A stretch of DNA of 64,000 nucleotides from Candidatus Latescibacterota bacterium (GTDB lineage Bacteria > Latescibacterota > CBDEFO01). Where the stretch lies: the NCBI GenBank assembly GCA_965248755.1, contig OZ252149.1:4252314-4316313 (forward strand), given 5' to 3'. Both the position numbers and the translations under genes were made by a program. The notes beneath the pieces were generated by a model that saw only the letters and a list, made by a program, of their open reading frames with translations, ran no database searches and had not been told where the DNA came from. Shown piece by piece: positions 1 to 64,000 of this stretch (its first letter is position 1; each line of letters begins with the position of its first letter).

Positions 1-18
1 CTAGATTAGAACCATCTA

Positions 19-255
19 TTACCTTGGCTGCACTCTTATCATTAGAACTTTCGGGACTGGTAAGACAGCTTTCGGGGAAGATGTTTTTAAGACAAGTATA
101 GAAAGGAGAGCATACGGGATGACTAAGACGCCGAGAAAATTGAGGATAAAAAAGAGAGCAAAGCAAAACGCCGCCGACAGGAGGGCTACAAGAAAGGCAA
201 GCAGAAAAAAGGTCAAAAGACAGTTGTGATTCCAAAGCCCTGCCGAAGTTGGCAA
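19..255 (-). CDS. small hydrophobic membrane protein (hypothetical)
   Basis: 78-aa ORF, strongly hydrophobic, same strand and just downstream of the thioredoxin-like gene; no recognisable motif. Confidence 0.25.
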   Translation of the reverse strand: MPTSAGLWNHNCLLTFFLLAFLVALLSAAFCFALFFILNFLGVLVIPYALLSILVLKTSSPKAVLPVPKVLMIRVQPR

Positions 256-276
256 CGCTCTCCTTTCTCTTCGGGC

Positions 277-810
277 TTATTTCCACTTTATAGTGCAGCC
301 AACAGCCTCCGTCTCAGTTACCGCAACTTCTGCTCCTGAAAGGACAGCGTCGATGGCGTTTCTGAGATCCGGGGATTTGATGCTGTCGGGGTCCTCCCAG
401 TTGTCGTCAATTCTGCCTTGATAGCGCAGTGTGCGTTGGGAATCGAACAGGAACATCTCAGGAGTCCTCTCAGCTCCGTAGGCGGAGGCGGCACTCTGAG
501 CTTCGTCTCTCAAATATGGAAAGTTGAAGCCCCTTTCCTCTGCCCGTATAACCATATTGTCGAAACCGTCTTCCGGGTGGTTCATATCCTCGTTGGGGTT
601 GATAGCTACAAGAGCCACACCATTGTCCTGGTAGTCTTTCTGTATGGCAATAATTCTCTCTTCGTATGCCTGCGCATAGGGACAGTGGTTGCAAGTGAAT
701 ACCACGATTAACACTTCTTTATCCTTGAAATCGTCCATACTGTGATTCACCCCGTCCACACCGGGAAGATCAAAAGGCGGTGCTTTGTCGCCTATCTTCA
801 GATCTGCCAT
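277..810 (-). CDS. thioredoxin-fold thiol:disulfide oxidoreductase (redoxin/AhpC-TSA-like)
   Basis: 177 aa; CxxC-type motif CNHCPY in the context VVFTCNHCPYAQ; typical redoxin length and layout. Confidence 0.8.
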   Translation of the reverse strand: MADLKIGDKAPPFDLPGVDGVNHSMDDFKDKEVLIVVFTCNHCPYAQAYEERIIAIQKDYQDNGVALVAINPNEDMNHPEDGFDNMVIRAEERGFNFPYLRDEAQSAASAYGAERTPEMFLFDSQRTLRYQGRIDDNWEDPDSIKSPDLRNAIDAVLSGAEVAVTETEAVGCTIKWK

Positions 811-892
811 GCTATTTTCCTTCCTTTATATGATTAAGCTCTGCTCGTGGCATCACTTAGGAAGAATCAGTATTAATGCTTCCGTTGCGATT

Positions 893-1756
893 TCATCTTA
901 GTAGAACCATCTTTCTTGTGGCGGTAAAGTCCCCCGCTTTCAAGATGTAGAAATAGACTCCGCTCGCCACGCTCCTGCCCTCTTCATCCAGACCGTTCCA
1001 CACTAAAGAATAGCTTCCTGCGTCTGCCTGACCCTCCATAAGCTTCCTTACTGCCTGTCCGTTGATGTTGTAAATGACAAGCTTTGCCCTTGAGTCTTCG
1101 GGCACATCGTAAGCTATGGTGGTCTCGGGGTTGAAGGGATTGGGATAGTTCTGGGAGAGAGAATAGACGGTCGGTATATCCTGTGTGTCTTTGAAGCCTG
1201 ACCGGGTCCGTCTGACGACGATCTGAACTGGATCCAGGGATTCTATCAGGTCAATGTCGTCTTTAGCGATCCCTTTAAGCTCTATTCTGGCGAGAGTGAA
1301 AGTGACCTCAGATCCTACGGGAAGTTCACCTGAAGGTATAAATGAGATTACCCCCAGAAGTCCCTCTCCAGAGGGAGCTGTCCTATGGTCGGGCTTCACA
1401 ATGGCGTTGGCTACGATGACCCTGTTCTCCCTTTGCGTCTTCAAAGAGATGGGTGTTGCACCTCCCCTGGAGGATAGTATGTTGCGCTTCCCTTCACAAG
1501 ATGCCAGCGTGGAAGGCTCGTTCCAGGAGAAAAGCTCGCTGTCATATAGGAGGTCTATGCGGTAAGCAGTCAGGTCAGATACGCCTTCTGCATAGACAGC
1601 CACATCTACAGTCTGCTGATTGGACTTATACAGATCGAGTCTCAGTGAGGCTGCGCTGTTTGTGCCTGCCATTGGCTCCGATATAGGCATCAGAGCGACA
1701 GTCAGAAGGATAGCTCCAATAACGATGACTCTGGATATCATGATTTCCTCCTCCAT
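893..1756 (-). CDS. secreted cohesin-like domain protein with T9SS type-A C-terminal sorting domain
   Basis: N-terminal hydrophobic signal segment; C-terminal about 80 aa (YPNPFNPETTIAYDV...GVYFYILKAGDFTATRKMVLLR) matches the Por/T9SS C-terminal sorting domain pattern; central region resembles cohesin beta-sandwich domains (weaker, by recall only). Confidence 0.6.
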   Translation of the reverse strand: MEEEIMISRVIVIGAILLTVALMPISEPMAGTNSAASLRLDLYKSNQQTVDVAVYAEGVSDLTAYRIDLLYDSELFSWNEPSTLASCEGKRNILSSRGGATPISLKTQRENRVIVANAIVKPDHRTAPSGEGLLGVISFIPSGELPVGSEVTFTLARIELKGIAKDDIDLIESLDPVQIVVRRTRSGFKDTQDIPTVYSLSQNYPNPFNPETTIAYDVPEDSRAKLVIYNINGQAVRKLMEGQADAGSYSLVWNGLDEEGRSVASGVYFYILKAGDFTATRKMVLLR

Positions 1757-1906
1757 TTAGGGTTGAATTGAGATTATGCTCGATCTTTGTGAGTATGTTT
1801 ACTGATTATGTTTACAGTTCTTATGCGTACAATATACAATATAATCGCTCAAAAGCCAAATCTTTTTTTTCATCAGAGAATATTTAGTCAATATACAACC
1901 GTAAAG

Positions 1907-4953: not shown

Positions 4954-7900
4954 TTATTGTGTCCTTCCGAAGTTATCCAGAAAAAGGACAAAGTCAGAAA
5001 GACCGATCTCTCCATTGCCGTCTAAATCAAATATAGAATTGGCTGAAGTGGTCGTTGTCCCGAACGCATCTAGAAACAGGACAAAGTCGGCAAGGCCTAC
5101 TTCATTGTTCCCATCGAAATCTGCTGCAAGGTCTGGGGGAACAGCAGATATATCAGAGAGATTCAACAACACTGATACATTATCGCTGTTCCAATTAGCC
5201 ACAGCCAGGTCATTTGTCTCATCGCCATCTAAATCTGAAATAAATACGGAATGGGGACCGTCTCCAGCATCAAAGTCCAGCTTATCTTCGAATGTCCCAT
5301 CTCCTTTATTCAAGAATACTGACACATTATCGCTGAAAGAATTAGCGACAACCATGTCATTATCCTCATCACCATCTAAATCCGCGATGAAAACTGAGCG
5401 GGGAAAACTTCCGGCGTCGTAGTCTATCTTAGGTGCAAATGTCCCATCGCCATGGTTCAACAACACAGATGCGTTGTCGTTGAAAAAATTTGCCACAGCT
5501 ATGTCATTATCTCCATCAGCATCTACATCCGAAACGAAAACGGATATGGGACCATTCCCAGTGGGATAGTCCACCTTGTCTGCAAATGTCTCATCTCCAT
5601 TATTCATCAGCACTGATACGTTGTGGCTGGACGTATTAGCTACAGTCAGATCATTATCTCCATCCCCATCGAGATCCGAAGCGAAAATCGAATGAGGACC
5701 AGCGCCAGCGGCGTAGTCGCTCCTATCTGGAAATATTCCATCTCCTTTATTCAGCAACACTGACACACTATTGCTGAGCTGATTTGCCACAGCTAAATCA
5801 TTATCTCCATCGCTATCTATATCCGAACTATAAACCGATATAGGACCATCACCGGCAGCATAATCTATCTTAGGCGCAAATGTGCCATCGCCATTATTCA
5901 ACAGTATTGATACATTGTCGCTGCTGAAATTAGCTACAGCTAAATCGTTATCCCCATCGCCATCTAAATCACCAATGAATACTGATTGAGGAACATCTCC
6001 AGCGGGATAGTCTATCTTGGGCGCAAACTTCCCGTCTCCATCATTAAGTAGCACAGAAACAATATCATTGCTCAGATTAGCTACAGCTAAATCGTTATCC
6101 CCATCGCCATCTAAATCTCCACTGAATACTGATTCCGGTTTTTCCCCGGTGGCGTAGTCAGTCGGAAGTCCGAAAAAGACAAAAGCAAACGCAAATCCAT
6201 TCTCAAGTGTGTCTGCCTTACCGTCAGCATTTGCAACTATCACATCGACAGTACCGACAGGGTGTGCGGGAGGCAGAGCGGTAATTCTATTGCTGGCCAC
6301 TACGACTACATCTATGGCTGCCATATCCCCGAAAGTGACAGTCGCTCCGATCCCGAAATTACTCCCCGTAATCGTCACAAGCGTACCGCCCGATTCTGAG
6401 CCGACACCGGGCCTGATAGATGTCACAACAAGAGGGGGAGGAACAATAAACTCAAAGGCGTTAAAGAGCGTGTCTGTCTGACCGTCTGGATATGTGAGTA
6501 TCACATCCACAGTACCAACAGGATGACCGGGAGTCAGAGCGGTAATTCTATTGCTGGCCACTACGACTACATCTGTGGCTGCCATATCCCCGAAAGTTAC
6601 AGTCGCTCCGATCCGGAAATTACTCCCTGTTATCGTCACGGACGTACCGCCCAATTCTAGGCCGGAAGTGGGACTGATAGATGTTACAACAGGAGGAGGA
6701 GGAACAATAAACTCAAATCCGTTAAAGAGTGTGTCTGTCTGACCGTCGGGATTTGTTACTATCACATCGACAGTACCGAGAGGATGAGCAGGAGTCACAG
6801 CCCTAATAGCAAGGGAGGATAGTACGGCTACGTCTATGCCTGCCATATCCCCGAAAGTAACGGTCGATCCGATCCGGAAAGTACTCCCTGTAATCGTCAC
6901 AGGCGTACCGCCCGATTCTGAGCCGACACCGGGCCTGATAGATGTCACAACAAGAGGTCCAGTAAGGACAAACTCAAAGCCACTAAAGAGCGTATCTGCC
7001 TGACCGTCGGGATTTGTTACTATCACATCCACAATACCGAGAGGATGAGCAGGAGTCTTGGCAGTAATAATACCCAGAAGTCCTACAGCTACATTTGTGG
7101 CTGCCATATCGCCGAAAGTAAGAGTCGCTCCACTCTGGAAATTGCTCCCCGTTATCGTCACAGGCATACCGCCCAATTCCGTGCCAGAGGTAGGACTAAT
7201 AGATGTCACAACTGGAGAAAGCGGCACATTAGACCGATTCAACAACACTGATACACCGTTGAGATGAGCCGTAACCAGGTCATTATCTCCATCCCCATCT
7301 AAATCTGCAATGAAGACTGATATGGAACCATCCCCAGCGGTGTAGTCCACCTTAGGTGCGAATGTACCATCTCCATTATTCAACAACACTGACACATTAG
7401 CGCTTTCCAAATTAGCCACAGCAAGGTCATTATCCCTATCACCATCTAAATCTGCAATGAAGACTGATATGGAACGATCCCCAGCGATGTAGTCCACCTT
7501 AGGTGCAAATGTACCATCTCCATTGTTCAATAGCACTGACACAATACCGGGCCTGCTACTAAAGCCTCTCGCATTAGCCACAGCAAGGTCATTATCTCCA
7601 TCTCCATCTAAATCCGCACTGAATACTGACCTGGGATCTTCCGTTGCGTGATAGTCCACCTTAGGTGCAAATGTACCATCCCCATTATTCATCAACACTG
7701 ATACAGTATTGCCGGGACGTCCACTAGCCACAGTCAAGTCATTATCTCCATCCCCATCTAAATCTGCACTGAAGACTGAATTGGAACCAGACTCAGTGGT
7801 ATAGTCCACTTTGTCTGCAAATGTCCCGTCTCCATTATTGAACAGTACTGATACAGTACCCACCACATTAGCCACAGCCAGATCATTATCCCCATCCCCA

Positions 7901-11245: not shown

Positions 11246-12605
11246 CAAGTAGCAGCATCTCTTCCCGAAAAGAAGTCAGGTTACTTTGTGTTCTTCGCGC
11301 CTTGACGCTATATCCTGTTCAACCTGGCGCGGTAGCAATGCCCACAGCGCCCGTGAGACCTGCATGACTTAGATACGTTTCGGATAACCTCAGTATAACC
11401 GAAAGCCGATCAAAAGCCTCCAGACCTGATGCGTATTGTCCTCTTTGGGCCCTGCTCCCTTTTCAAATCTGCGAGAGAACTTGTACACTTTCCCCTGAAG
11501 ATGGAGGTAAAACCTGTCACCTTCCTTGCGGCGTTTTATGTCGACTCCGATGTAATCTAATCCTTCCTCCATCCTGTCTATGCCCTCGTCTCCCGAAAAA
11601 GGCACAAGTGCCTCAGCCCTTTCACGGTCGTATTCAAAACCCACCCTAATGTCATTCCAGATCTGATAAGTCGTCCTGAAGAAAGCGTCTCTTTCTTCAT
11701 TCCTGAAGCCCTGCTCTTCTGTGCCTCTCCCGACGTGGTGTCCTACAATCCAATCCCTGTAGATATAGGGGAAGTTGCCAGCGACATCCCCGCTGTGCGC
11801 ATACCAGCCGTTCGGCGCCGAGATCCCTCTCCTCAAAAACCTACTTTCGACGACCTGAAATAGCCTTGCTAACTCTATCCTCAGATCCGCCCTTCCGTCC
11901 CTAAATAGGTCTCCAAGGTACGCACCTATCAAATAAGCACTATTGCGGCCCCAAGGTATTACCCTCCTTGCAAACCCCGGGTACCACACATCGTCTCCGG
12001 CTGTTAAACCATAGAGCTTAACGTAATCGTATAGATATACACTCCCCCCCACCTCAGCGATGGCATTGCCTCTTATATCCCCTGCTGTCTGATTAAGAAT
12101 GCTCTCTATGGGGTTCTCCTTAATGACGCCCCCGACGCTTGCTCCTACAGCGATCTTGTTTAGACCGACATTCCCCATATCACATTCATGAGGGATTGTA
12201 TTTCGATACAATCTTGTTTGTGAATGAATATTACCACTTTTACATTTTTCAACAAGTATTTTTTTCAATTAATTATAGTATTTTCCTCTGAATTATCACT
12301 TTCTTTGTGTTTAAATCCTCCAAATCGGAGACACCTCTCCATCGACTCACAAAAAAATGTGGCAGTTTAAACAGAGTAATATCGCAATCGTTCAATCCGG
12401 GATAATATTTCGGTAAATAAGCTCTTGTCTATCCCAACCTCAGCCATCTGAAACGTGATGTATCTGCTGTGCCTGACAAGCTTCGCGCCAATCTTGATCA
12501 ATGTCACGAGGAGGCTGCCAAGAGACCCCGGGATAATATCAGTGTTTGATTCTCCCTGGAAGAACCAACCGCCTTAGCCCGATTAATTCATAAACTTGCT
12601 GGAGT

Positions 12606-12628
12606 TATTGCGAGGAGCAAAGCGGTCC
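12606..12628. repeat. palindromic element copy (TCCCCGATTGAGTCTATCGGGGA)
   Basis: 7-8 bp perfect stem with 7-nt loop; member of a dispersed family (see findings). Confidence 0.8.
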
Positions 12629-12714
12629 CCGATTGAGTCTATCGGGGAAGCAATCTCAAGGTTTTATAGTGGTCTCCTATGAGAGTCGGAGAGTATTACA
12701 TCTACCACAAGTAA

Positions 12715-12738
12715 CCCCCGATTAAATCTATCGGGGGG
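12715..12738. repeat. palindromic element copy (CCCCCGATTAAATCTATCGGGGGG)
   Basis: Same stem and loop architecture, 109 bp from the previous copy in direct orientation. Confidence 0.8.
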
Positions 12739-12933
12739 ATTGCTTCGCCTTCGGCTTGCAATGACACCGAAGGTGGTTAAACGGCATAACTATAATATAA
12801 TACAATCCCTTAATTAATACACGGACTTTTTTTGTGAATTATTCGCCTCAGAAAGTTTCCAAGATTATAGGCCAGAAGAAATAACCAGAGCCTCACCTGA
12901 TCCCTTTCTGAACCCACATAGCATTGATATCTG

Positions 12934-13317
12934 TCAGGTGATATCTGACAGGCTGTTGAGATTTTCCAACTGAGTCAGTATCTCCGTTTCAAAACGTCCT
13001 ATCGTGTTGGCGCTGGCGGCGTGCTTGCCTTTGCCCTTCTTTCCGGTAATCGCTCGCATTACTGGGTCAACTGGTAAAGGATGAGCATTATTCACAGCTT
13101 CATATCCTGCAAGACGACTGTAAATCGATTGACGCATCAGTGTGGGCATATCATGTTGGATATTAAGTCCTCTTCGTAGATCGTTAAAAAGACTAGATAC
13201 TGAGTCGAATAATCCTAAAACGTCATCGAGGTCACGATACGCAAGAAGACCACCATCAGATGTCACCTTGGCACGATCAAATTCAAGCTTAATAGTTCCA
13301 TCAAATCCCATATTCAT
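12934..13317 (-). pseudogene. IS1380-family transposase, N-terminal fragment
   Basis: 127-aa ORF LEFDRAKVTSDGGLLAYRDLDDVLGL...YSRLAGYEAVNNA matches the conserved N-terminus of IS4/IS1380-type DDE transposases; the catalytic core is missing. Confidence 0.6.
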
Positions 13318-14278
13318 CCTTTCACCCTCTGGATGATCAATACTTATCCGCCATTTCCGAGTCTTATTTATTGTAATCTAACATGTTCTGGTGACTTTGA
13401 CAACCGTTTTTCGGGTCTAATATGAGGAATGGTGGTTAGATATGTCCACTGGAGCCTTGCGGTAATAAGGCTTACCTCATCTCCGGTTCGACTTTGAAGA
13501 CCGTCGATAATAGAGGTGCTCCCGGACACTGGACCCAAACTATGTTCTATCTGAATGGACCTAAGAGGAGGAGCGTTGTCTGTCAACACAAAATTTCCAT
13601 GGTAGCCCGGTCCCCACCATTGTCTGCTCTTCCCAAATAAAAAATCGGTCCTCAGAAACCTTACTTTAAGATAGACCTCGTCTAACTTTGCTACGGTTCT
13701 CTCGTCCTTTCCGAAAAGGTAAGGAGATGCAAAAAAGGCAGCATAAGGCGTAATACTTGCTCCTACATCTATTTTGGCCCCGATGCTGCCGCCCTTGGAA
13801 AAGTGATAAGGCTCAATATTATCCACATTTTTAACTGCCGCTCTGGTAGCTCCAAAGAGGGTTAACTCCCCCTTTATGTAAGGGATAAAAAGTTTTTTCC
13901 TTTTTCCCCGCTCTGCCTTTGCTATATCCTCCAATTCGAGTCGAAACTCGTGCTCAAGGTCTAAGACCCATCTTTCTACCTCCAAAGACAATGCCGGCTT
14001 ACTCTTTGACAGTCCATAAACTAAAAGAGCGGCCTCATAACGTCCGATGGGTTTGCTCTCGGACGGAGGACGCTCTAAAAGTCCCTTTGTGTTTAACCTT
14101 TCCAGGATACCGTACGCCCAGTGATGCAGGGGCAAAGCGACAGATGCTCTCCTTTCCTGGAACGGAGTCCACGTTCTACCTTGTGCCCAAACCTTACCGG
14201 CGTTAGCAGTACTGAGGTTCCCAAGCAGTATCGGAGAACTTTTTGGGGAAAAGAGGATTAGGGCAACATACGCACAAC

Positions 14279-16113
14279 TTAAGAACTTCCACTTTGATGA
14301 TTTCTGCAAAACTCCTGAAGTCCCTTCAAAAGTCCCTCTCTGTCTACCCTATCGACGTAGTCGATAATGTTTTGGATCTTCTTGTCCAGCCCATCGATCC
14401 GATTAGAAGACGTGATCCTTAGTATCTTATCGTGCACAGTAGGCTCTACCTTTTCGTCTCCGTTCCAAAGTTCTTCGTGCATCTTTTCTCCGAGCATAAG
14501 TCCTGTGAAGACTATCTGTATATCCTTGTCCACTTCCAGTCCGGAAAGATGTATCATGTCCTTTGCCAGATCCAATATTTTGATCGGGCGTCCCATGTTC
14601 AATATGAATATATCTCCCCTATTTCCTATCGCCGCTGCCTCCAATACCAACTGTGCCGCCTCTGGGATTGTCATAAAGTAGCGGGCTATATCAGGGTGAG
14701 ATACTGTAACGGGGCCTCCTTCTGCTATCTGTTTCCTGAATATAGGGATGACACTTCCGTCGCTGTCCAGGACGTTGCCGAATCTGACTGTGACAAACTT
14801 GGCCCTGCTTTGTCTGCCGAAATCCTGGATGAAGAACTCCGCCAGCTTCTTGGATACACCCATAACTCCCACCGGATTAACTGCCTTGTCTGTTGAGATA
14901 TTAACAAAGGTCTCCACACCGCCTTCCTCTGACAGCTGTGCCGCAGCTATAGTCCCAGCTAAATTGTTCTTTATGGCTTCCTCAGGGTTCAACTCCATCA
15001 AAAGCACGTGCTTATGAGCCGCAGCGTGAAAGACGATCTGTGGCTTGTGTTCGCCTATCATGGCCCTGAACTTTGCCCGGTCGTTAATATCTCCTATTAT
15101 CTGGACAATCTCCGTATCTCTTGCAATCTTTTCAAATTCAATTCCCAAAAAGTGCATATTGTTCTCAGCTTTGTCATAGAGCACAATTTTGAAGGGATTA
15201 TAAGCAGAAGTTGGCGGCATATCTCCGCACCGATAGAGCCCGCTGCTCCGGTTACTAATACAGTTTTATTTGCTATAAACGAGCGTAACTTCTTAGTATC
15301 TAAATTCACCTCCTCTCTACCTAAAAGGTCCTCAACCTTGACGTCCCTGAGTTGATTTATAGGAGATTTTCCATTTACCATCTCGGAGGATGCGGGTGCG
15401 ATCTTGAAATCGATGTTGCATTCTGAGCATATATCTACGATCTCCCTGATCTCTTGTCCACTCGCATCTGGAACCGCCATGATCACTTGCCTGATCTGTC
15501 TGCTTTGAATGATGTTTTTCATCTTCTCCACCCCGCCTAAAATCTCGATTCAGTGAATCCGCATGCCCACATTGGCGCCCGAATTGTCTATGAATCCCTC
15601 GATCTTATACTGCTCCCGATGGTTATTCTCCACCTCCCTGACGATCAGCTCTGCTGTGCTTCCTATGCCGTATATTAGGACAGGTGCGGCAGATCCTCGC
15701 GGTCTCAGCACAGACTCCAAACTCGACCGGAATCTGATAACAAATCTGCTACCCCCGATAAGCAGGATCATAGACATCCAGTCCAGCAAGAAGACACGCC
15801 TTGGGAAGTCCACCGTGCGCAGGACGTATACCAAAGCGATCAGAACTATACTCCCTATCGTAATACTCTTGCATATCTGAACTAAGTCCTCAACACTTGC
15901 ATATTTCCATAGTCTGCGATAGAGATTCGTAACTGAGAATATGCCTATCCTCACTGGGATCGCCAATACCACCATAAGCATCAGGTTATACCTCTGAGCT
16001 TCGGGGAATGAGAAGTTAGAGATCACCCCGAACGATAGGAAAACCGAAATTGCTATAGACAGCAAGTCTGCTACTATCAGGAGGATTTGGTGTCTTTTTA
16101 ATCTTATGTTCAC
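14279..16113 (-). pseudogene. capD: CapD/PglF/WbpM-type UDP-sugar 4,6-dehydratase, disrupted by two frameshifts
   Basis: Three consecutive ORFs (15550..16293, 15097..15531, 14279..15220) together encode an N-terminal membrane domain, a linker with VLVTGAAGSIGAEICRQLL NAD-binding motif, and the epimerase/dehydratase domain; frame changes near 15545 and 15100-15230. Confidence 0.7.
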
Positions 16114-16138
16114 CGATTCGTGTCCCAGAATTTCAGCT

Positions 16139-17263: not shown

Positions 17264-17322
17264 AGCAAAATATGGGTTGGACTAAACACCTTTACGTCCA
17301 GAGCGATTCTCTGATTGCTCTA

Positions 17323-45168: not shown

Positions 45169-45828
45169 ATGAAATTTAATCCTTCATATGTGGAAGAACG
45201 TCCTGATGTACTTTCACTAATCCGGCCTGGCATAAGAAATTTGCTTGACATTGGCTGTAGTGATGGAACATTTGCCCTGTCTGTGAAGAATAAATTCAAA
45301 TCTGTAGAGGTCTTAGGAGTTGAACTTGATCCTTCTATGGCTTCTGTTGCTAAACAAAGATTAGATATGGTTCATATTGCTGATTTAAACAAGGTTAATC
45401 TCAGTAATCTTTTTCCAGAGAAAACATTTGATTGTATAGTAATGGCAGATGTTTTAGAGCACCTTATTGATCCATGGAATATCATCAAACAAGCTTCATC
45501 TCTTTTGGCTGACAATGGAAGGATTGTTACAAGTATCCCAAATGTTCGTCACATTTCTACAGTTATAAGTCTAGTATTGAAAGGGAAATGGCCATACAGA
45601 AAACGTGGCATTCATGACATGAACCATCTACGATTCTTTACTCATTCAAACATTGTCGAAATGTTTGATAAAGCAGAATTGAAAATAGTTAGAGAAAAAA
45701 GGAATATGAGGATTGTTGAGCGCAGTTTTAAAAAAATAGATATATTTGCTAAGTTATTTGATATTCTAGGATTAAGAGAGTTTTTTACAATTCAGTATTT
45801 ACATGAATGTGTTCTATCTGACGAATAA
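45169..45828 (+). CDS. SAM-dependent methyltransferase
   Basis: LLDIGCSDGTFALSV (motif I) and IVMADVLEHLIDP. Confidence 0.7.
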   Translation: MKFNPSYVEERPDVLSLIRPGIRNLLDIGCSDGTFALSVKNKFKSVEVLGVELDPSMASVAKQRLDMVHIADLNKVNLSNLFPEKTFDCIVMADVLEHLIDPWNIIKQASSLLADNGRIVTSIPNVRHISTVISLVLKGKWPYRKRGIHDMNHLRFFTHSNIVEMFDKAELKIVREKRNMRIVERSFKKIDIFAKLFDILGLREFFTIQYLHECVLSDE

Positions 45829-45994
45829 AAGAATCCGTGGTTTTCAGCGGGCTTACAGCGTCTAAGAGAGTAACATCTGGATGGTCACTATTCATCATTA
45901 GACTCAGGGAATTCGCGATGCTCAAGATCGCTTTCGCCAGGAAACTTATCCAGGGGAACATAACCGTAAGACGCGTTGAAGGAGCAAAGCCAAG

Positions 45995-46927: not shown

Positions 46928-47084
46928 TTTGAACGCTTGCAGGGGAGCATTTCATAGTCAGCCGGAAGTTCCTTGGAAGAGATAGTTTCTATGGCAGAGG
47001 AACTGTAGGTCCTGCCGGGGAAGACAGTGCGGTTCAGCTCCTTGCAGAATATAAAAAACTGTGTAAGGAGAAAAGGGAACAAAA

Positions 47085-48176
47085 TTGAAGATCATCTTAT
47101 CAGCAGGGGTTCGACCTAAGTTTATGAAGGTTGCACCGCTTGTGGAGGAGATTAGGAAGTTTCCGGAGAATCTTCAGGCTTCTCTCATTCACACAGGATA
47201 GCACTACGATGATCCAATGTCCAGGGTGTTCTTCTGTGATCTGAAACTTCCCAAACCGGACAGATATTTGAACGTGGGATCGGGAACTCACGCAGTCCAG
47301 ACGGCCGGAGTGATGGTGGTATTTGAGCAGGTACTTTTAGAGGAAATGCCAGATTTAGTAATAGTGGTGGGAGATGTGAACTCGACTTTAGGGTGCGCAC
47401 TTATCGCCGCCAAACTGGGCATTAAGCTGGCGCACGTGGAAGCAGGACTGCGCAGTTGGGACCGCACGATGCCTGAGGAGATTAATCGGGTTGTGACCGA
47501 CTTAATTTCGGATCTACTGTTCACACCTTCGGAGCATGCAGACGAGAACCTACTCCACGAGGGGATACCCCAAGAGAAGATATTTTTCGTGGGGAATATA
47601 ATGGTCGATTCTCTGCTTAGATCTAAGCGGATAGCGTTAAGATCCAAGATCCTGGAAGAGATAGGTTCAGCAGAAGACAACTACTGTCTGGTGACGCTGC
47701 ACCGTCCATCTAACGTCGATGTAAAGGGGGTCCTATCTGGAATCATCAATGCATTAGACAAGATTCAGGAGCAGATTAAGGTAGTCTTTCCCGCTCATCC
47801 CAGGACGCAAAAGATGCTCCGGGACTTTGAACTGCTCAGAGTCTTGGAGGGTATGGATAATCTGACTTTGATAGAACCCTTAGGCTATCTGGATTTCTTG
47901 AAGCTTGAGATATGCGCAGAGGTAGTGTTGACCGATTCCGGTGGGATACAAGCGGAGACGACAGTTTTAGGGGTGCCGTGTCTAACTTTGAGGGAGAATA
48001 CGGAAAGCCCCACGACTGTCGAGATCGGGACAAATCTGGTCGTGGGAAACCGAGAAGATGATATCGTGGTTGCAGTATATAAGGTTCTACAAAGTAAGGG
48101 TAAAAAGTGGAGCATTACAAAATTCTGGGATGGTCGAACATCAGAGCGGATCGTCAGGATATTGAAAGGTATTTAA
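47085..48176 (+). pseudogene. wecB: UDP-N-acetylglucosamine 2-epimerase (non-hydrolysing) with in-frame amber codon at 47199-47201
   Basis: TTG start after GGAG; translation LKIILSAGVRPKFMKVAPLVEE...SLIHTG-stop-HYDDPMS continues in the same frame into ORF 47217..48176; the stop sits where this family usually has Gln. Confidence 0.65.
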
Positions 48177-49495: not shown

Positions 49496-49717
49496 TTGAC
49501 AGCTTGCCTGAAAGAATATTACACCATACTGTTCCCCGTGGAATGCATGGGATTTAATTCTGCCCCTGAGGTTACCGCCAAAGTGTTAAAGAGGGGATAT
49601 AAAATCTACGAAGTACCGATTTCATACGGTCCGAGAGGAAAAGAAAAGGGCAAGAAGCTACGCTGGAACGTCGGCTTAAAGGCTATTTGTACTCTGATAA
49701 AATATCGTTTTCTGTAA
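49496..49717 (+). pseudogene. C-terminal fragment of a GT2 polyprenyl-phosphate glycosyltransferase (gene remnant)
   Basis: Only about 50 aa (RGYKIYEVPISYGPRGKEKGKKLRW...) resembling the tail of GtrB/ArnC-like GT2 enzymes such as the intact paralogue at 52257..53225. Confidence 0.4.
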
Positions 49718-53301: not shown

Positions 53302-54003
53302 TTACGCAGCTTCTTTTTTCCCTTCGTCTTTTTTCGCTTTTCTGGCCTCTATTTCCTCTTTGAGATGGTCTATCATACGGGACGCCTTTCTCATTATTGG
53401 ATTGTCCTTGAGGAAATTACGTGCTTTTTGTCGTTCCTCCTCTGTGAAGACTTCCTCTTCGACGAGCTTGGATATGAGGTCTTTTTGCTCTTTGGAGGCA
53501 GTTTTCCCGTTCCCGTTGCTTCCGAACCCACCGTTTCTCGTGCCTGTATGTTCCCGGGGAGGCTCCTTTATCTCATCCACAGAGCACATTCCTGTGGCGG
53601 TCGCCAACCGCATAGCCCTGTTGGTAGCTCTCCTTGTCGCCATTTCGATCGGATATTCTGGGAACTTTACAAAGCCCTTCAGGTTATGAGGGCTCGCCGT
53701 GCCGTAATCTACGAAGGGCTTTTCGAATCCTTCGACCCAGACTTCCCCTTTCATGACAACGAGGGGATCTCCCTCCTTGAGAGCTATCATCGCCCTCAGG
53801 AGTCTGTACTCCTCAACTGAGGGGGGGAGTGCCTGAACAGCGAATCTTCCTGCTCCGTACTTCTGCAGCATCTTATACTGGAGGCCCGCTCCGGTTATGT
53901 AAGGTTCACCATCTATAAATACCACAAATTCCTCAACCTTTTGGATAGGGAAGCGCTCAGAATCTGCGATCTCTTTTTGCATCTCTTTCAATGTCTTTTC
54001 CAT
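53302..54003 (-). CDS. hypothetical protein with Gly-rich linker
   Basis: 233 aa, charged, no signal peptide; no recognisable family. Confidence 0.4.
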   Translation of the reverse strand: MEKTLKEMQKEIADSERFPIQKVEEFVVFIDGEPYITGAGLQYKMLQKYGAGRFAVQALPPSVEEYRLLRAMIALKEGDPLVVMKGEVWVEGFEKPFVDYGTASPHNLKGFVKFPEYPIEMATRRATNRAMRLATATGMCSVDEIKEPPREHTGTRNGGFGSNGNGKTASKEQKDLISKLVEEEVFTEEERQKARNFLKDNPIMRKASRMIDHLKEEIEARKAKKDEGKKEAA

Positions 54004-54378
54004 CTGAAACCTCCACTCTAAAATAATAATCTAAAGGAACAATTCCCGAATAGTGTCGACACTACGAATATACTGTACATTAGTGTATTTGTCAAGGAAA
54101 AAATAAAGATTTTTCCAGATATTTAAAAAAAATGGAACGATCATCCGTAACGGTTTCTTGATGCTTAATTTTGTGGAACTGATAGGGCTATAAATACGGA
54201 CTAAATCAGCTTGTAAAACCCTTACGAGATTTTGCATAGGTTTTGATTTTACTTGATTTCTGCGCATCAGATGAATATATTATCGATGTGCTCTTTGGAC
54301 GTATTTCGTTTGTGGAAGAATAGAGTTGATCTGTCATCGGTGCACTGATAGAATCCAGGTAAGTGGGAGAAAAGGTGA

Positions 54379-57820: not shown

Positions 57821-58019
57821 AAATAAATCCGATTACCCCATAAAGTCAAGATATATCGGGATAGATAGAAACATAGGTAATAGTGAAGTAGTAAGGAGGG
57901 AGAAAGGCAGATGCGCTGAATTCACAGAAGGTAAAAGTCTATCGGAAGATTCTTAAATTGTCAACTTTAGAGCGCGATTCATCACTGAGATTCTGTAACA
58001 GGGGAGTCGCCTCTATATC

Positions 58020-59365
58020 GGGTCTGTCAGTTTTTTTGTGTAAATGGGATTTTCTTCTGTACCCTTTTCGGCTTATTCTATACCAAATCTCCCCTCGAAG
58101 TGGATGGAGAATTGGTGAATGGCCAAGCTCCAGTTCCTGATCGGCATCGTCCATTTTTTCTTGATATTCTTGAGTGTCATATAGAGTAACTTAATCGCTG
58201 TCTCGTCGTTTGGGAAGCTATTTCTGTTCTTTATTACTTTCCGTAGAGAGTTATTAAGCGATTCGATGGCGTTTGTGGTATAGATCACCCTTCGGATCTC
58301 TTCAGAGTAGGCGAAAAACGGGATGATCCGAGACCAGTTATTCTGCCACGATTTACTTATCATCGGATAACGGCTGTCCCAAGCCTCCTGAAAATCTCCA
58401 AGGGCCTCTTCAGCCTGTTCTACCGTGGGGGCTCGGTATATATTCTTGAGGTCGGCGGCAATCTTCTTACGATCCCTATACGACACGAACTTCAAGGAAT
58501 TCCTCACCACATGGACAATACAGAGCTGGACCTCTGCTTGGGGAAATACGGATTCAATAGCCTCTGGAAGACCCTGGAGACCATCCACGCAAGCTATCAA
58601 CACATCGTTCATCCCCCGATTCTTAAGCTCCGTGAAAACTTGCAGCCAGAACTTCGCCCCCTCGCTCTTTGCAATCCAGATACCCAAAACGTCTTTCATC
58701 CCATCCAGACCGACCCCTACCGCAAGATACACCGCCTTGTTTACGATCCGGCCTTCGTCTCTAATCTTCATCACCAGAGAATCAAAGAATACTATGGGAT
58801 ACACCCCTTCCAAAGGACGATCCTGCCACTGCTTCACCTCTGATATGATCCCATCGGTCACAGTCGATATCAAATCAGGGGCACCTCTACACCGTATATC
58901 TCCTCCAAATGAGCCTGTATATCACGTGTGGTCATCCCTCGGGCATACATAGACAGTATCTTATCATCAAAACCTGTAAATCGCCTCTGCCCCTTCCTCA
59001 CTATCTGCGGATCAAACTGACTGTTCCGATCCCGTGGCACCGATATCTCCAGATCACCATAATCTGTCTTCAATCCCTTTGTGCTCCTACCGTTGCGCGA
59101 ATTACCGCTGTTCCTCCCTTCTGGAGAACTCTTATCGTAGCCTAACTCATACGTAAGCTCTGACTCCAGAGCCCGCTCAAGAATCGCCTTCGTCAACTGC
59201 TTCAAAAGACCTTCCTAACCAATTATGTCTTCCGGCTTCTTGTAATCCTTCAAAAGCTCATCAATCAACTTCGGGTCTAGCTTGTCCATGTAAGAACTCC
59301 TTATGTAAATGGTGGACAACTAATATAACTCATTTCCCCATTTACACAAATTTCCTTACACACCC
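58020..59365 (-). mobile_element. IS256-family insertion sequence, copy 1 (inactivated), flanked by 8-bp TSD TCTATATC
   Basis: Termini GGGTCTGTCAGTTTTTTTGTGTAAATGGG / CCCCATTTACACAAATTTCCTTACACACCC form imperfect IRs; identical 8-mers at 58012-58019 and 59366-59373. Confidence 0.85.
58073..59319 (-). pseudogene. IS256-family transposase, inactivated (1-nt deletion plus nonsense codon)
   Basis: Split into ORFs 58073..58873 and 58870..59205; relative to copy 2 lacks one A near 58878 and has GAG to TAG near 59203; also a Q to R substitution. Confidence 0.85.
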
Positions 59366-59366
59366 T

Positions 59367-60374
59367 CTATATCTCCCCTTCAATCTCCTTTCTCATTAAA
59401 GAGCAGAAACTGATCGCCCTCTTCAGACATCCCTCAGCCTTCTTTTGATCTACCTTGTTCTCTTTCTCAAGCATGTCCCTCTTTTGGGGCAACCATACAT
59501 TTTCCAGATAGTCCATCTGCTCGTTCAGATTCGGGTCGTCCGCGCAGCTTATGAAGTAGTCGATGATCCCCAACAGTCCAAATTTCAAGCTTACAGAATA
59601 TGATTTCGTCTCCTCATCCAAATCTAGGCAGATGTTTTTGCTTCTGTTCTGCCGTGCCGTTGCCAGTTTCCCGGCAGAAACGGTCAAAAGTGTATTTACA
59701 AAACTGTCCTTGTTCTGTACCCAGTCCGCCAGCCCCTCTACGTAGTCCAGAAGGTCCACCTTTTCGCCTCTAGAGATAACCGAGTAGGCTCGTATCTGCA
59801 CGTTTCTGAAGAACGCCACGAGTCCAATGTTGGCGTCTATAGTGTCAGCATCGTACAGTATCCTCTTCTCCAGGGAGGAATATTCTCTCTCCACATCGCT
59901 TGGGCTTAATCTACTGGACTTGAGGTGGCCTACGATAATATCTGCTATCTTCTGACAGAACGTTTCGGGGAAATTCCTCATCCTTAATATCTCTTCTGAG
60001 ATGAAAGCACCAGATACATTATGTATTTCTCCGAACAGATTGTACTTCTCGTATAGTTGAGTTACAATATTGTTTCCTGTGGGCAGCAGAGAATCGTTCA
60101 GCCAGAAACCATGCTCATTTAGAAGCCTGTTTCCGTTTTCATCCATGCTAACAGGACCGTCGTATCTTTTTGTAATATCGTGGAGCGTAGCTGCATATTT
60201 CAACTGATCTATGTCTCCACCTTCATCTTCACCCAAGGATACGCTCAGGTTCCTTACTCTCATCGTATGATTGAAGTAATAGTGTCTCCACAAAAAGCCC
60301 ACCCGCTTTTCGTCCCACAGATTGAAAGTGGACCCTACAAGATCTTCTAACTCCTTCAATCTATTGTCTTCCAT
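59367..60374 (-). CDS. HD-domain phosphohydrolase-like protein
   Basis: 335 aa; H...HD motif region HYYFNHTMRV...AATLHDITK and later LYDADTIDANIG; stop codon lies inside the right TSD of IS256 copy 1. Confidence 0.65.
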   Translation of the reverse strand: MEDNRLKELEDLVGSTFNLWDEKRVGFLWRHYYFNHTMRVRNLSVSLGEDEGGDIDQLKYAATLHDITKRYDGPVSMDENGNRLLNEHGFWLNDSLLPTGNNIVTQLYEKYNLFGEIHNVSGAFISEEILRMRNFPETFCQKIADIIVGHLKSSRLSPSDVEREYSSLEKRILYDADTIDANIGLVAFFRNVQIRAYSVISRGEKVDLLDYVEGLADWVQNKDSFVNTLLTVSAGKLATARQNRSKNICLDLDEETKSYSVSLKFGLLGIIDYFISCADDPNLNEQMDYLENVWLPQKRDMLEKENKVDQKKAEGCLKRAISFCSLMRKEIEGEI

Positions 60375-60860: not shown

Positions 60861-60938
60861 GCGCCCATGGCTCAATTTGGATAGAGCATCTGACTACGGA
60901 TCAGAAGGTTGGGGGTTCGAGTCCCTCTGGGCGTGCCA
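60861..60938 (+). tRNA. tRNA-Arg (anticodon ACG)
   Basis: Cloverleaf folded by hand: acceptor GCGCCCA/TGGGCGT, D-stem GCTC/GAGC, anticodon stem TCTGA/TCAGA with loop CTACGGA, T-stem GGGGG/CCCTC with loop TTCGAGT, discriminator G, encoded CCA. Confidence 0.8.
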
Positions 60939-60943
60939 GAAAA

Positions 60944-60981
60944 AACAACGGGTTACGACAATTAGATCGTAGCCCGTTGTT
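60944..60981 (+). terminator. stem-loop downstream of tRNA-Arg
   Basis: AACAACGGG ... CCCGTTGTT 9-bp stem. Confidence 0.4.
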
Positions 60982-60985
60982 CGTT

Positions 60986-61022
60986 TGGTGACATATTGGT
61001 GACAGAAAGCGGGCTGGTGACA
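60986..61022. repeat. three direct TGGTGACA repeats
   Basis: Copies at 60986, 60997 and 61015, immediately downstream of the tRNA. Confidence 0.6.
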
Positions 61023-61534
61023 GCTGAAAAGAGCCTGGTAACTCTTCTATGTACACGTCAGTAACAAATCATAATATTGACGGAATCTATTCCATAGCGG
61101 CTTCGGAGGAAAAAAGGCAGTTGATGCAAATACACATCAACGAACTCATCTGGACGTTCGCTGAAGTGAAGCCACGTTGAGCCACCACCTTCAGCGTGGC
61201 TCAACATAGGTACTCCGCAGAGCGGAGCTTCAAACCCCATGCTTGGGTGCTATCCCCTACACCCCCCGAGATTGCATTCATTCGCACTTACGCGCGATGG
61301 TATTCTGTCATAACTTTTGGTTCTTCTCCAAAAAGTGTAGTTATTGACGGAAGTAGTTTTTTGAGAATTTAATATTGAAAGGCATCTGTCTGTTCCTGTA
61401 TAGTTTATAGTAGTAAGAACAAACAAATACAGGAGGGGGACAGGATGCCTAGTGACATGAGAGCATAATGGCTTAACCTGCCGAAAGTAAGAGTTAATCG
61501 CGTAACGATCCATAGTGACAGCACCGAAATTTAT

Positions 61535-61819
61535 GTGGATCGAGATGCTCTCTTCGACTTTACTTGCTCTGGCTGTGGCCAGACATCCTTCTGGAGTTGG
61601 GATTGTCGGCAATTCAGGATTAGGGATCTGTCAGTTTTTGAATTTAAGGCCTACCTGATCATAGATAAATATCGCACCAATTGTCCAATCTGCGGGGTGA
61701 AGATTGAAGGACTTGACTTTGTTGATTCTTATTACCGATGCACTGCCGAACAATGGATTAAGGTAGGCAAATATGCTCTGAACTGGGTCCGGCTATCATG
61801 CCAGCGTCCCCGATTGTGA
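61535..61819 (+). pseudogene. ISL3-family transposase, N-terminal fragment
   Basis: CSGCG...RIRDLSVFEFKAYLIIDKYRTNCPICG matches the zf-ISL3 N-terminal pattern; ORF stops at the palindromic element. Confidence 0.5.
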
Positions 61820-61852
61820 TCCCCTATTGAATCTATAGGGGAGCGGGGATCA
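61807..61852. repeat. compound palindromic element (TCCCCGATTG + TGATCCCCTATTGAATCTATAGGGGAGCGGGGATCA)
   Basis: Contains the family loop TGAATCT in a nested hairpin; sits between the ISL3 and IS1380 fragments. Confidence 0.7.
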
Positions 61853-61853
61853 G

Positions 61854-62096
61854 GTGAGGCTCTGGTTATTTGTTCTGGCCAATAATCTTGGAAACTTTCT
61901 GAGGCGGTTGGTTCTTCCAGGGATAATCAAATACCGCTCTCTTGGCAGCCTCCTTGTGAAATTGATCAAGATTGGCGCGCAGATTGTCAGGCACAGCAGA
62001 TACATCACGTTTCAGATGGTTGAGGTTGGGATAGACATGAGGTTATTTGCCGAAATATTATCCCGGATTGAACGATTGCGATGTTACTCTGTTTAG
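61854..62096 (+). pseudogene. IS1380-family transposase, C-terminal fragment
   Basis: LANNLGNFLRRLVLPGIIKYRSLGSLLVKLIKIGAQIVRHSRYITFQMVEV matches the conserved C-terminus; near-identical DNA to 12368-12560 on the opposite strand. Confidence 0.6.
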
Positions 62097-62263
62097 AAGC
62101 CTTGTGAAATAGTTATCTTGTAGGCAGCGTCTGAAACGTCTATTATGGGTCAAACAGTAGCATATCGTATCGTTTTGCTATGGAATAAGCAAAATAGTCT
62201 CATCAGAGTTCTGGTCAGCAAGGAATAGAAGCTGTTTGAAGAACAGGATGCACTGTCTTTGAA

Positions 62264-63610
62264 GGGTCTGTCAGTTTTTTTGTGTAAATGGGATTTTCTT
62301 CTGTACCCTTTTCGGCTTATTCTATACCAAATCTCCCCTCGAAGTGGATGGAGAATTGGTGAATGGCCAAGCTCCAGTTCCTGATCGGCATCGTCCATTT
62401 TTTCTTGATATTCTTGAGTGTCATATAGAGTAACTTAATCGCTGTCTCGTCGTTTGGGAAGCTATTTCTGTTCTTTATTACTTTCCGTAGAGAGTTATTA
62501 AGCGATTCGATGGCGTTTGTGGTATAGATCACCCTTCGGATCTCTTCAGAGTAGGCGAAAAACGGGATGATCCGAGACCAGTTATTCTGCCACGATTTAC
62601 TTATCATCGGATAACGGCTGTCCCAAGCCTCCTGAAAATCTCCAAGGGCCTCTTCAGCCTGTTCTACCGTGGGGGCTCGGTATATATTCTTGAGGTCGGC
62701 GGCAATCTTCTTACGATCCCTATACGACACGAACTTCAAGGAATTCCTCACCACATGGACAATACAGAGCTGGACCTCTGCTTGGGGAAATACGGATTCA
62801 ATAGCCTCTGGAAGACCCTGGAGACCATCCACGCAAGCTATCAACACATCGTTCATCCCCTGATTCTTAAGCTCCGTGAAAACTTGCAGCCAGAACTTCG
62901 CCCCCTCGCTCTTTGCAATCCAGATACCCAAAACGTCTTTCATCCCATCCAGACCGACCCCTACCGCAAGATACACCGCCTTGTTTACGATCCGGCCTTC
63001 GTCTCTAATCTTCATCACCAGAGAATCAAAGAATACTATGGGATACACCCCTTCCAAAGGACGATCCTGCCACTGCTTCACCTCTGATATGATCCCATCG
63101 GTCACAGTCGATATCAAATCAGGGGACACCTCTACACCGTATATCTCCTCCAAATGAGCCTGTATATCACGTGTGGTCATCCCTCGGGCATACATAGACA
63201 GTATCTTATCATCAAAACCTGTAAATCGCCTCTGCCCCTTCCTCACTATCTGCGGATCAAACTGACTGTTCCGATCCCGTGGCACCGATATCTCCAGATC
63301 ACCATAATCTGTCTTCAATCCCTTTGTGCTCCTACCGTTGCGCGAATTACCGCTGTTCCTCCCTTCTGGAGAACTCTTATCGTAGCCTAACTCATACGTA
63401 AGCTCTGACTCCAGAGCCCGCTCAAGAATCGCCTTCGTCAACTGCTTCAAAAGACCTTCCTCACCAATTATGTCTTCCGGCTTCTTGTAGTCCTTCAAAA
63501 GCTCATCAATCAACTTCGGGTCTAGCTTGTCCATGTAAGAACTCCTTATGTAAATGGTGGCCAACTAATATAACTCATTTCCCCATTTACACAAATTTCC
63601 TTACACACCC
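62264..63610 (-). mobile_element. IS256-family insertion sequence, copy 2 (intact transposase), no TSD
   Basis: Same termini as copy 1; flanks TCTTTGAA and ACGAAATC differ. Confidence 0.85.
62317..63564 (-). CDS. IS256-family (mutator-type) transposase
   Basis: 415 aa uninterrupted; typical IS256 sequence features. Confidence 0.9.
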   Translation of the reverse strand: MATIYIRSSYMDKLDPKLIDELLKDYKKPEDIIGEEGLLKQLTKAILERALESELTYELGYDKSSPEGRNSGNSRNGRSTKGLKTDYGDLEISVPRDRNSQFDPQIVRKGQRRFTGFDDKILSMYARGMTTRDIQAHLEEIYGVEVSPDLISTVTDGIISEVKQWQDRPLEGVYPIVFFDSLVMKIRDEGRIVNKAVYLAVGVGLDGMKDVLGIWIAKSEGAKFWLQVFTELKNQGMNDVLIACVDGLQGLPEAIESVFPQAEVQLCIVHVVRNSLKFVSYRDRKKIAADLKNIYRAPTVEQAEEALGDFQEAWDSRYPMISKSWQNNWSRIIPFFAYSEEIRRVIYTTNAIESLNNSLRKVIKNRNSFPNDETAIKLLYMTLKNIKKKWTMPIRNWSLAIHQFSIHFEGRFGIE

Positions 63611-63625
63611 ACGAAATCGGACGGG

Positions 63626-64000
63626 TTAAGCAAGTTTTTTGCAATTTTGTGCTTCATACTGTGCCTCGAATTCTCCAGGCGTCAGATAACCAAGTGCTGA
63701 GTGGATACGCTGATCATTGTAAACCACATCCAGAAAGTGACTCAAATGCACCAAAGCGTCCTCAAAATGCACGTATTCTTGCTGCCATACTTCCTCATCC
63801 TTCAGATGACCAATCGCGCTTTCTACAAACGGGTTCTCCCAAGCTTTGGCCTCAGATGCCATGCTTATCTCGGCACTTACTTCCCCAAGCATCTTACGGT
63901 AGCCAGCCGCCGTGTATTGAGACCCCCGATCCGAATGGTGTATCTCCGGTCGGTGTCCTTTCTTGAATGCTTTGGAAAGTGCTTCTTGGGGCAAGGCACA
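63626..64000 (-). CDS. IS3-family transposase (integrase core), 3' part; continues beyond window edge
   Basis: HHSDRGSQYTAAGY...HSALGYLTPGEFE; rve-type integrase core; N-terminus lies beyond 64000. Confidence 0.7.
   Translation of the reverse strand, partial: CALPQEALSKAFKKGHRPEIHHSDRGSQYTAAGYRKMLGEVSAEISMASEAKAWENPFVESAIGHLKDEEVWQQEYVHFEDALVHLSHFLDVVYNDQRIHSALGYLTPGEFEAQYEAQNCKKLA

Follow-up and report, generated by a model that had tools for sequence, protein, structure and literature searches.

Why does one stretch of a bacterial contig hold so many broken genes? The stretch in question, here called the window, comprises 64,000 bp of contig OZ252149.1 (positions 4,252,314 to 4,316,313, forward strand) from a Candidatus Latescibacterota bacterium. 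A reading of the window made without database searches, here the sequence-only reading, had reported frameshifts, in-frame stops and gene fragments in unrelated genes, among them capD, wecB, a SIR2-like gene, an FG-GAP repeat gene and two transposase genes. It had argued that pure sequencing error was not the cause, and that the density of the lesions pointed either to a genome under relaxed selection or to the consensus of a mixed population. We propose that the lesions are probably genuine, heritable inactivations of dispensable genes, located in the flexible genome of a lineage with active insertion sequences (ISs), bearing in mind that each single-nucleotide indel is read from one consensus sequence.

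All sizeable reading frames of the window were scanned with Pfam, NCBIfam and PADLOC, giving about 60 gene-like units in the 64 kb. The window contains a housekeeping block (ffh, rpsP, rimM, trmD, rplS, gatB, hisC, hisB, aroQ, and exbB-exbD-tonB), two surface-polysaccharide clusters, two FG-GAP/TIG repeat genes, and branched-polyamine genes. The first cluster is wzi-capD-DegT-GT4, at 11–18.5 kb, where GT denotes a glycosyltransferase family; the second, at 40–53 kb, is of the GT9/GT1/GT2/flippase/wecB/YfhO type. Six IS-derived elements are present: two IS1380, one IS1595, two IS256, and an IS3-type fragment at the window edge. The best relatives of Ffh beyond its own species cluster are 67–70% identical, those named being Latescibacteria, Zixibacteria, Calditrichaeota and Kryptonia, and one gene (896-1756) encodes a type IX secretion system (T9SS) sorting domain. 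The host thus appears to be an uncultivated, marine-type FCB-group (Latescibacterota-like) bacterium. Comparisons were made with sister strains, that is, eight related contigs from four metagenome assemblies of the European Nucleotide Archive (ENA) that are 93–97% identical to the window. Their alignments show, without reference to the lesions, which DNA of the window is conserved and which is strain-variable.

Nine point lesions are distributed over six genes: capD, wecB, the second FG-GAP/TIG gene, the SIR2-like gene, and the transposase genes of the IS1595 element and of one IS256 copy, IS256-1. They comprise four nonsense substitutions, among which all three stop codons occur, four 1-nt indels, and one 20-nt insertion. 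In all six genes, family homology is found on both sides of the lesions. For wecB, IS256-1, IS1595 and the FG-GAP repeat units, the disablements are absent from close orthologues or paralogues. The lesions named by the sequence-only reading are all present, with two amendments: IS1595 is disabled by a palindromic insertion, net +20 nt, and one more disablement than was listed is found in the SIR2-like gene. Because TAA, TAG and TGA all terminate intact genes (17, 17 and 12 times, respectively, in 46 intact genes), the genetic code is standard, and an alternative code was rejected on this ground.

About 10 of the 60 units are disabled, versus a 4% background (binomial P = 1e-4). Without the IS elements the figure is 6 of 54 (P = 0.02). 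The published prokaryotic background is 1–5% pseudogenes, with enrichment among horizontally acquired genes (PMC522871). Intact genes account for 70% of the window, decayed genes plus IS DNA for about 20%. The claim that lesions are unusually many therefore holds within the window; since the window is island-rich, these densities are not for extrapolation to the whole genome.

The placement of the lesions is non-random. Five of the six lesion-bearing genes are in DNA that is absent, replaced or broken in all sisters (hypergeometric P = 0.0012), and all five indels are in strain-variable segments (P = 0.0011), which account for 26% of the comparable span. The intact genes, about 45 kb in total and including all of the conserved housekeeping genes (ffh, rpsP, rimM, trmD, rplS, gatB, hisB, hisC, aroQ, exbBD-tonB), carry zero lesions. 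Two genes were hit repeatedly, the SIR2-like gene with three lesions and capD with two. The confinement of nine lesions to six or fewer genes has P = 0.03, weak evidence alone, and with eight lesions the clustering is not significant (P = 0.12).

This placement bears on the proposal that selection is relaxed genome-wide, the window being a typical sample of a genome in early reductive evolution with IS expansion. We consider this unlikely as the fuller account, though it is compatible with the local decay proposed here. It would accord with the six IS-derived elements in 64 kb, with the private disruptions and different IS families of the sister strains, and with intact coding sequence being just 70% of the window. 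Nei–Gojobori ratios of nonsynonymous to synonymous substitution (dN/dS), computed at low divergence between the window and two sister strains, are mostly 0.1–0.35, and are about 0.2–0.3 even for ffh, rpsP, rimM and gatB; they exceed what would be expected of a large free-living population and hint at mildly weak purifying selection. dN/dS is time-dependent, however, and is inflated at low divergence, here a dS of about 0.05–0.2. Moreover, no housekeeping or conserved gene of the window is disabled, the lesions are confined to strain-variable DNA, and the genome, at 4.54 Mb, is not reduced. Two polysaccharide clusters, a defense slot and a tRNA-linked IS graveyard would be expected to decay locally. 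The density of lesions is thus not a sign of a relaxed-selection genome: the housekeeping genes are intact, the lesions track the flexible genome, and only dN/dS hints weakly in that direction.

The individual lesions carry the argument further. Those of the second polysaccharide cluster are as follows.

47082-48176, plus strand: wecB (UDP-GlcNAc 2-epimerase), with a premature TAG at 47199-47201, codon 40 (reading frames; Epimerase_2).
49525-49535, no strand: junction of a deletion of about 980 bp, which removed a 253-aa methyltransferase gene held by sister strains (alignment blocks, gene tables).
49536-49717, plus strand: C-terminal remnant, about 60 aa, of a GT2 glycosyltransferase (translation; weak NCBIfam match to an AglJ-type glycosyltransferase, E = 1e-3).

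In wecB, the TAG replaces a CAG within the conserved HTGQHYD motif. Codon 40 is CAG in sister strains L166 and L168, the Epimerase_2 match (profile 7-347) covers the stop, and the restart frame lacks the first 39 residues. With a dN/dS of 0.26, wecB is no higher than its neighbors; there is thus no signal of relaxed selection, and the stop is probably recent. The GT2 remnant, in turn, is probably old because its DNA is conserved in sister strains. Directly upstream of the dead wecB is a cassette swap: window 45156-47014 holds genes for a methyltransferase (219 aa) and a GT2 (310 aa), versus a 396-aa GT4 at 16277-17406 of L166. The swap may explain why wecB is no longer needed, a link that we infer.

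In the first polysaccharide cluster, two adjacent genes are disabled.

14279-16293, minus strand: capD/WbpM-type polysaccharide dehydratase pseudogene, with a TGA at 15550-15552 and a 1-nt deletion at about 15205/15206.
13371-14348, minus strand: N-terminal part of a gene for a Wzi-like outer-membrane barrel (IS1380 edge at about 13420; Pfam Caps_assemb_Wzi profile 30-116, E = 1.1e-12).
About 12151-13420, outer limits approximate, minus strand: decayed IS1380-family element within the Wzi-like gene (Pfam, NCBIfam).
11393-12268, minus strand: C-terminal part of the Wzi-like gene (IS1380 edge at about 12150; Caps_assemb_Wzi profile 227-337, E = 6.5e-7).

The capD TGA is in frame, at a position occupied by Gly in 28 of 30 intact homologues. 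Adding one base at about 15205/15206 extends the Polysacc_synt_2 match from profile 21-291 to 1-291 of 293, raises its score from 319 to 352 bits, and regains the NAD-binding motif as GAAGSIG; the longest open reading frame (ORF) of capD lacks this GxxGxxG motif. In the repaired capD, the CoA_binding_3 match runs across the TGA stop, and intact homologues align gap-free over the repaired shift. The neighboring DegT gene and the gene for the GT4 initiating transferase are still intact.

What had been noted as a split barrel gene is the Wzi-like gene, cut by an IS1380-family element that is itself without most of its transposase. Actual matches to IS1380 DNA are found only at 12368-12904 and 12937-13377. 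The latter matches Pfam DDE_Tnp_1_4 profile 4-113 and NCBIfam transpos_IS1380 profile 1-103 of 419; the transposase is reduced to its N-terminal 147 aa plus C-terminal scraps. Segment 12368-12525 is 94% identical to 61938-62095, which belongs to the second IS1380 remnant. The two Wzi halves are taken as one gene because of their Pfam profile coordinates; a search of DegT loci for a Wzi homologue spanning both halves found none.

Sister strains have lost this locus. In all five sister contigs covering the span, window 11650-17802, that is, most of wzi, capD, DegT and the 5′ part of the GT4 gene, is replaced by a 1.5-kb IS5-like element, a loss of about 6.1 kb. Only the last 84 aa of Wzi are left. 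DegT scans of genome and metagenome contigs gave relatives of at most 61% identity among the matches listed, and the sister strains are without DegT.

The third surface-type target is a repeat gene.

30057-32622, minus strand: second FG-GAP/TIG repeat gene, with +1 nt at 31657-31658 (Pfam FG-GAP_3/TIG on both pieces).

The extra C/G splits the gene into ORFs of 325 and 537 aa. The repeat here reads GGGACCATTTG, versus GGxACATTTG in the other five NGNGTF units of the two FG-GAP genes, and the best-aligned repeat units of relatives are also without the extra base. The orthologue is broken in every sister strain, but differently. In two samples it consists of pieces of 737, 345 and 272 aa, within a 4,026-bp region that is 100% identical between the samples; in another sister strain it is in four pieces. 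Separately, a terminal repeat of about 60 aa (DFDGDNEVGLSDFVLFLDVFG, two copies) ends both FG-GAP/TIG genes and a 230-aa ORF. Its sites (1897-2089, 4967-5130 and 30048-30239) are 80–82% identical in DNA and give a weak NCBIfam match to a GC-type dockerin (E = 7e-4). The nearby gene at 896-1756 has the T9SS sorting domain instead.

A candidate defense gene has decayed furthest in terms of hits.

36602-37613, plus strand: remnant of a defense-type SIR2-like gene (PADLOC; homologues P0308-P0311).

Its lesions are two TAA stops (36983-36985 and 37157-37159) and a +1-nt frameshift at about 37289-37296; in addition, the 3′ half is gone. Homologues P0308-P0311 join an upstream 127-aa ORF to the GAGASKPxPSNIPT motif; because they contain both in one gene, the ORF is taken as the N-terminal domain of the SIR2-like protein. 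Homologue P0310 has a TTNYE motif further along, and the window remnant is without the C-terminal half. The SIR2 label has modest support, from the homologues and PADLOC only. The PADLOC match (E = 6.2e-6) covers the first 85 aa after the first stop and only profile 21-107 of 395, and a Pfam scan of the remnant gave no SIR2 match at E ≤ 0.1. An in-frame pair of 243 and 83 aa at 53302-54279 was rejected as the SIR2-like gene: it is an intact 233-aa gene, described below, and a motif search placed the real site at 37019. The remnant occupies a strain-variable defense slot between Methyltransf_32 and HAD genes (window 36550-37606 versus L166 6838-8726), which sister strains fill with an AAA_15/AAA_21 ATPase (425–430 aa) and a DUF4276 protein (210 aa).

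The remaining two lesions are in transposase genes.

18923-19799, plus strand: IS1595-family element, with GGTAATGC terminal inverted repeats and flanking AATAAA(A) repeats (empty site in L161).
58020-59365, minus strand: IS256-1, with the 8-bp target duplication TCTATATC at 58012-58019 and 59366-59373 (empty site in L170).
62264-63610, minus strand: IS256-2, the intact reference, with a 415-aa transposase (Transposase_mut 14-377 of 379; NCBIfam IS256 4-337 of 338).

The IS1595 and IS256-1 elements are absent from the sister strains, where the empty sites are clean. A complex insertion at 19622-19649, +20 nt net, disrupts the IS1595 transposase gene; it is defined against a marine-metagenome copy of about 97% similarity (L177) and against intact 254-aa homologues. 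The change, from TATCGCGG to CGATCCCCGATTGATTCTATCGGGGAGG, makes a perfect inverted repeat with an 8-bp stem (TCCCCGAT...ATCGGGGA). The added sequence looks templated, as by a quasi-palindrome or strand switch, and unlike slippage. The repaired transposase matches DDE_Tnp_IS1595 over 2-153 of 153. More than 100 homologues of about 254 aa span the repaired protein nearly end to end, and six of six aligned are uninterrupted at the lesion. The lesion had also been considered as a 1-nt deletion, which was discarded when the homologue alignment showed a 20-nt insertion. The left end of the element (18923) lies within the first ten or so codons of a gene for an HTH_3 regulator (18505-18993, minus strand). 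The HTH_3 ORF now begins at an ATG 70 nt inside IS1595, giving a chimeric N-terminus with the HTH domain intact. The element probably provides the gene with a new promoter context.

IS256-1 has lost one A at 58881/58882 relative to the 99.6%-identical paralogue IS256-2, from which it differs by four substitutions besides. Its transposase appears in Pfam as two Transposase_mut pieces. The perfect 8-bp target duplication points to a recent insertion. IS256-2 is without a target-site duplication, which suggests rearrangement.

Could these lesions be mistakes of the assembly? The proposal is that some or all of the 1-nt indels (capD, the second FG-GAP gene, the SIR2-like gene, IS256-1) are assembly or polishing errors in genes that are intact. 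We regard it as distinctly improbable, but several facts do weigh against our reading of the lesions. Each single-base indel rests on one consensus sequence, and each of the four 1-nt indels adjoins or sits within a very short run. The names of related contigs carry coverage tags of long-read-assembler style, 5x to 19x. Contigs L175 (5x) and L176 (8x), near-identical (99.8%) over 20.7 kb, show six 1-nt indels relative to each other, of which five lie in genes; the indels split a TPR gene, a GT1 (GT1b) gene and an IS5-like transposase gene in one contig or the other. Such differences may be assembly errors, a caution for pseudogene counts in the clade. For a mock community, metagenome assemblies from Oxford Nanopore Technologies (ONT) data contained about 4 indels in every 100 kb (PMC13087279), near the 4–5 in 64 kb here. 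Taken with the L175/L176 indels, this rate makes an error contribution to individual 1-nt indels possible. Furthermore, capD has no orthologue in the sister strains, so that it is compared only with homologues of about 40% identity, and loss of function of the lesioned genes is something we infer from their sequences.

The pattern as a whole nevertheless argues against error. Assembly error does not yield four nonsense substitutions and a 20-nt palindromic insertion. Homopolymer runs longer than 3 nt contain no indel (in IS256-1 the lost A adjoins a GGGG run), and the window's long runs (72 of at least 6 nt and 23 of at least 7 nt) are all unaffected. All five indels fall in about a quarter of the sequence, as described above, and the 45 kb of intact genes are without a frameshift. 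Genes with indels also bear independent lesions: the stop in capD, and two stops plus truncation in the SIR2-like gene. The four substitutions between IS256-1 and IS256-2 indicate that the two copies were resolved as separate sequences. Thus, the contention that the lesions are not pure sequencing error stands, on the nonsense substitutions, the 20-nt insertion, the homopolymer context and the strain-specific clustering.

The sister strains bear on a further proposal, that the contig is a chimeric consensus mixing alleles of co-occurring strains, its set of lesions being found in no single cell. In sample ERZ25067264, four contigs cover the same locus at 7–19x, and several sister-lineage strains co-occur; the lesions also lie in the most strain-variable parts, where mixing is likeliest. 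However, strains 1–3% apart were assembled as separate contigs and not merged. Since every consensus base must be backed by reads, some cells carry the stops and the 20-nt insertion. In the sister lineage, independent samples contain identical multi-lesion haplotypes, and the window proteins that were looked up are each on a single 4.54-Mb contig, except for the 233-aa protein, which is common to the sisters. We therefore rate a chimeric consensus as very improbable. The mixed-population explanation is right in that the data are metagenome-derived and strains co-occur; it is not needed, given that sister strains assemble separately and lesions recur.

A last proposal is that the interruptions are functional, that is, programmed frameshifting or phase variation of surface genes. 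Programmed frameshifting is known from the transposases of some IS families, and phase variation is common in surface genes; the IS1595 lesion, moreover, sits in a hairpin. Even so, we give this proposal hardly any weight. No lesion site has a slippery heptamer, a simple-sequence repeat or a long homopolymer. The 99.6%-identical IS256 copy and the roughly 97% IS1595 copy have uninterrupted ORFs, as do the six aligned IS1595 homologues at the lesion. Four lesions are stop codons, of three kinds, all used as terminators in the genome.

Genuine inactivation of dispensable genes thus remains the reading that we favor, and the sister strains indicate how such genes fare. Because identical multi-lesion haplotypes were found in independent samples, the sister-lineage lesions are heritable and recur at dispensable loci. 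Sister strains carry many private disruptions and different IS families. An HD gene is deleted in one of them and split in another. A broader form of this reading is that the clade is undergoing IS-driven, strain-by-strain erosion of its surface and defense repertoire, with the same loci (Wzi-CapD-DegT-GT4, FG-GAP/TIG, HD) lost independently. We put this forward as a tentative extension, and think it doubtful at present. If true, it would mean selection for surface loss, or early niche restriction or host association, and not neutral decay.

We suggest the following course of events. ISs would insert into or next to genes: IS1380 within the Wzi-like gene, IS1595 next to the gene for the HTH regulator and into its 5′ end, and IS256 between the TPR gene and the HD gene. 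The nonsense changes, the 1-nt indels and one templated 20-nt insertion would arise by ordinary point mutation. Once a gene is unneeded, such mutations would go unpurged, and dead genes would gather several hits. Deletional bias would then remove the wrecks, as may be the case for the 3′ half of the SIR2-like gene, the body of the GT2 gene, the 980-bp methyltransferase segment, and the sisters' 6.1-kb Wzi-capD-DegT loss. The targets belong to fast-turnover classes, namely, surface polysaccharide, an adhesin-like repeat protein, a defense cassette and transposases. The inactivations of capD (two hits in 2 kb, with DegT and GT4 intact) and wecB (dN/dS not raised) look recent; the decay of the SIR2-like gene, of both IS1380 elements and of the GT2 tail appears old. 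Loss may be neutral or even favored, e.g., as escape from phage or host recognition of surface structures.

Other features of the window are the following.

61839-62095, plus strand: IS1380-family C-terminal remnant beside tRNA-Arg (Pfam DDE_Tnp_1_4 profile 356-434; kept in L169-L172).
53305-54003, minus strand: gene for a 233-aa protein, intact in the window and without a family match.

ISs are piled up 3′ of tRNA-Arg, the only match of an Rfam scan of the window. The pile-up (60861-64000) consists of the IS1380 tail, common to all strains, IS256-2, and the IS3-type integrase-core fragment, which runs off the window edge; an IS5-like element occupies this neighborhood in sister strains. The 233-aa gene differs from that of strain B by 1 nonsynonymous and 7 synonymous changes, whereas the flanks differ by 3–5%, which points to recent exchange. 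Strains A and H have a frameshifted form of the gene beside an IS1595 fragment, a context common to contigs from two samples. At window positions of about 25150-25280, between a PMT_2 gene and a 227-aa gene, strains L161, L163 and L164 carry an insert (their positions of about 13000-15600) that encodes a 179-aa ORF, DndB (367 aa) and a D12-class methyltransferase (283 aa). This cassette is missing from the window and from strain A, and in contig_78 the D12-class methyltransferase gene is split by a 1-nt insertion. Finally, the genes for BpsA_C (branched-chain polyamine synthase) and S-adenosylmethionine decarboxylase adjoin at 28514-29943 and are kept in all strains; this pairing is best known in thermophiles.

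These results have practical consequences. For annotation, the split genes of the contig are to be treated as pseudogenes and not "corrected", and neither the capsule/O-antigen-type locus at 11–18 kb nor wecB should be counted as functional capacity. The window also provides a base-resolution case of cassettes being disabled and then deleted, by way of IS insertions, point lesions, a palindromic insertion that looks templated, and deletions. It may equally serve as a case study of convergent surface-locus loss, since the same loci appear to have been lost independently in sisters. If the pattern is genome-wide, it would indicate a lineage with a small effective population size or a recent change of lifestyle.

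How does the window compare with known systems? In Shigella, Yersinia pestis and Bordetella pertussis, IS expansion accompanies a build-up of pseudogenes in niche-restricted bacteria. The window resembles these in its several IS families, recent insertions and IS-interrupted or IS-flanked genes, in the IS-associated deletions of the sister strains, and perhaps in a somewhat raised dN/dS. It differs in that no core or metabolic gene in the window is hit, and in that the genome is 4.5 Mb. The Y. pestis O-antigen cluster is disabled by frameshifts, and capsule loci are IS-disrupted in many species. The first polysaccharide cluster has a like history: wzi is disrupted by an IS, capD by a stop and a frameshift, DegT and GT4 are intact, and the sister strains lost the same locus by deletion.

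With the frameshift artefacts of long-read assemblies (truncated proteins of the IDEEL type; PMC13087279), the window shares genes split by 1-nt indels, in contigs whose origin seems to be long-read metagenome assembly. The nonsense substitutions, the 20-nt insertion, the absence of homopolymers and the non-random sites in flexible DNA set it apart. The closest likeness is to the background pseudogenes of prokaryotes, in which stops and frameshifts occur in recognizable families and transposition families are over-represented (Liu, Harrison, Kunin & Gerstein 2004, PMC522871). As with the "failed horizontal transfers" of that survey, the lesions are concentrated in DNA that the sisters lack or have replaced, as judged from the alignments of their contigs. 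The local density, about 16% (about 11% without ISs), is unlike the genome averages of 1–5% and comes from one island-rich 64-kb window; in the same survey, pseudogenes make up 36.5% in Mycobacterium leprae and about 12% in Neisseria meningitidis. To summarize, local decay of the flexible genome is an ordinary, well-known process, probably seen here in a little-known lineage, and matches the standard life cycle of accessory or horizontally acquired genes (PMC522871).

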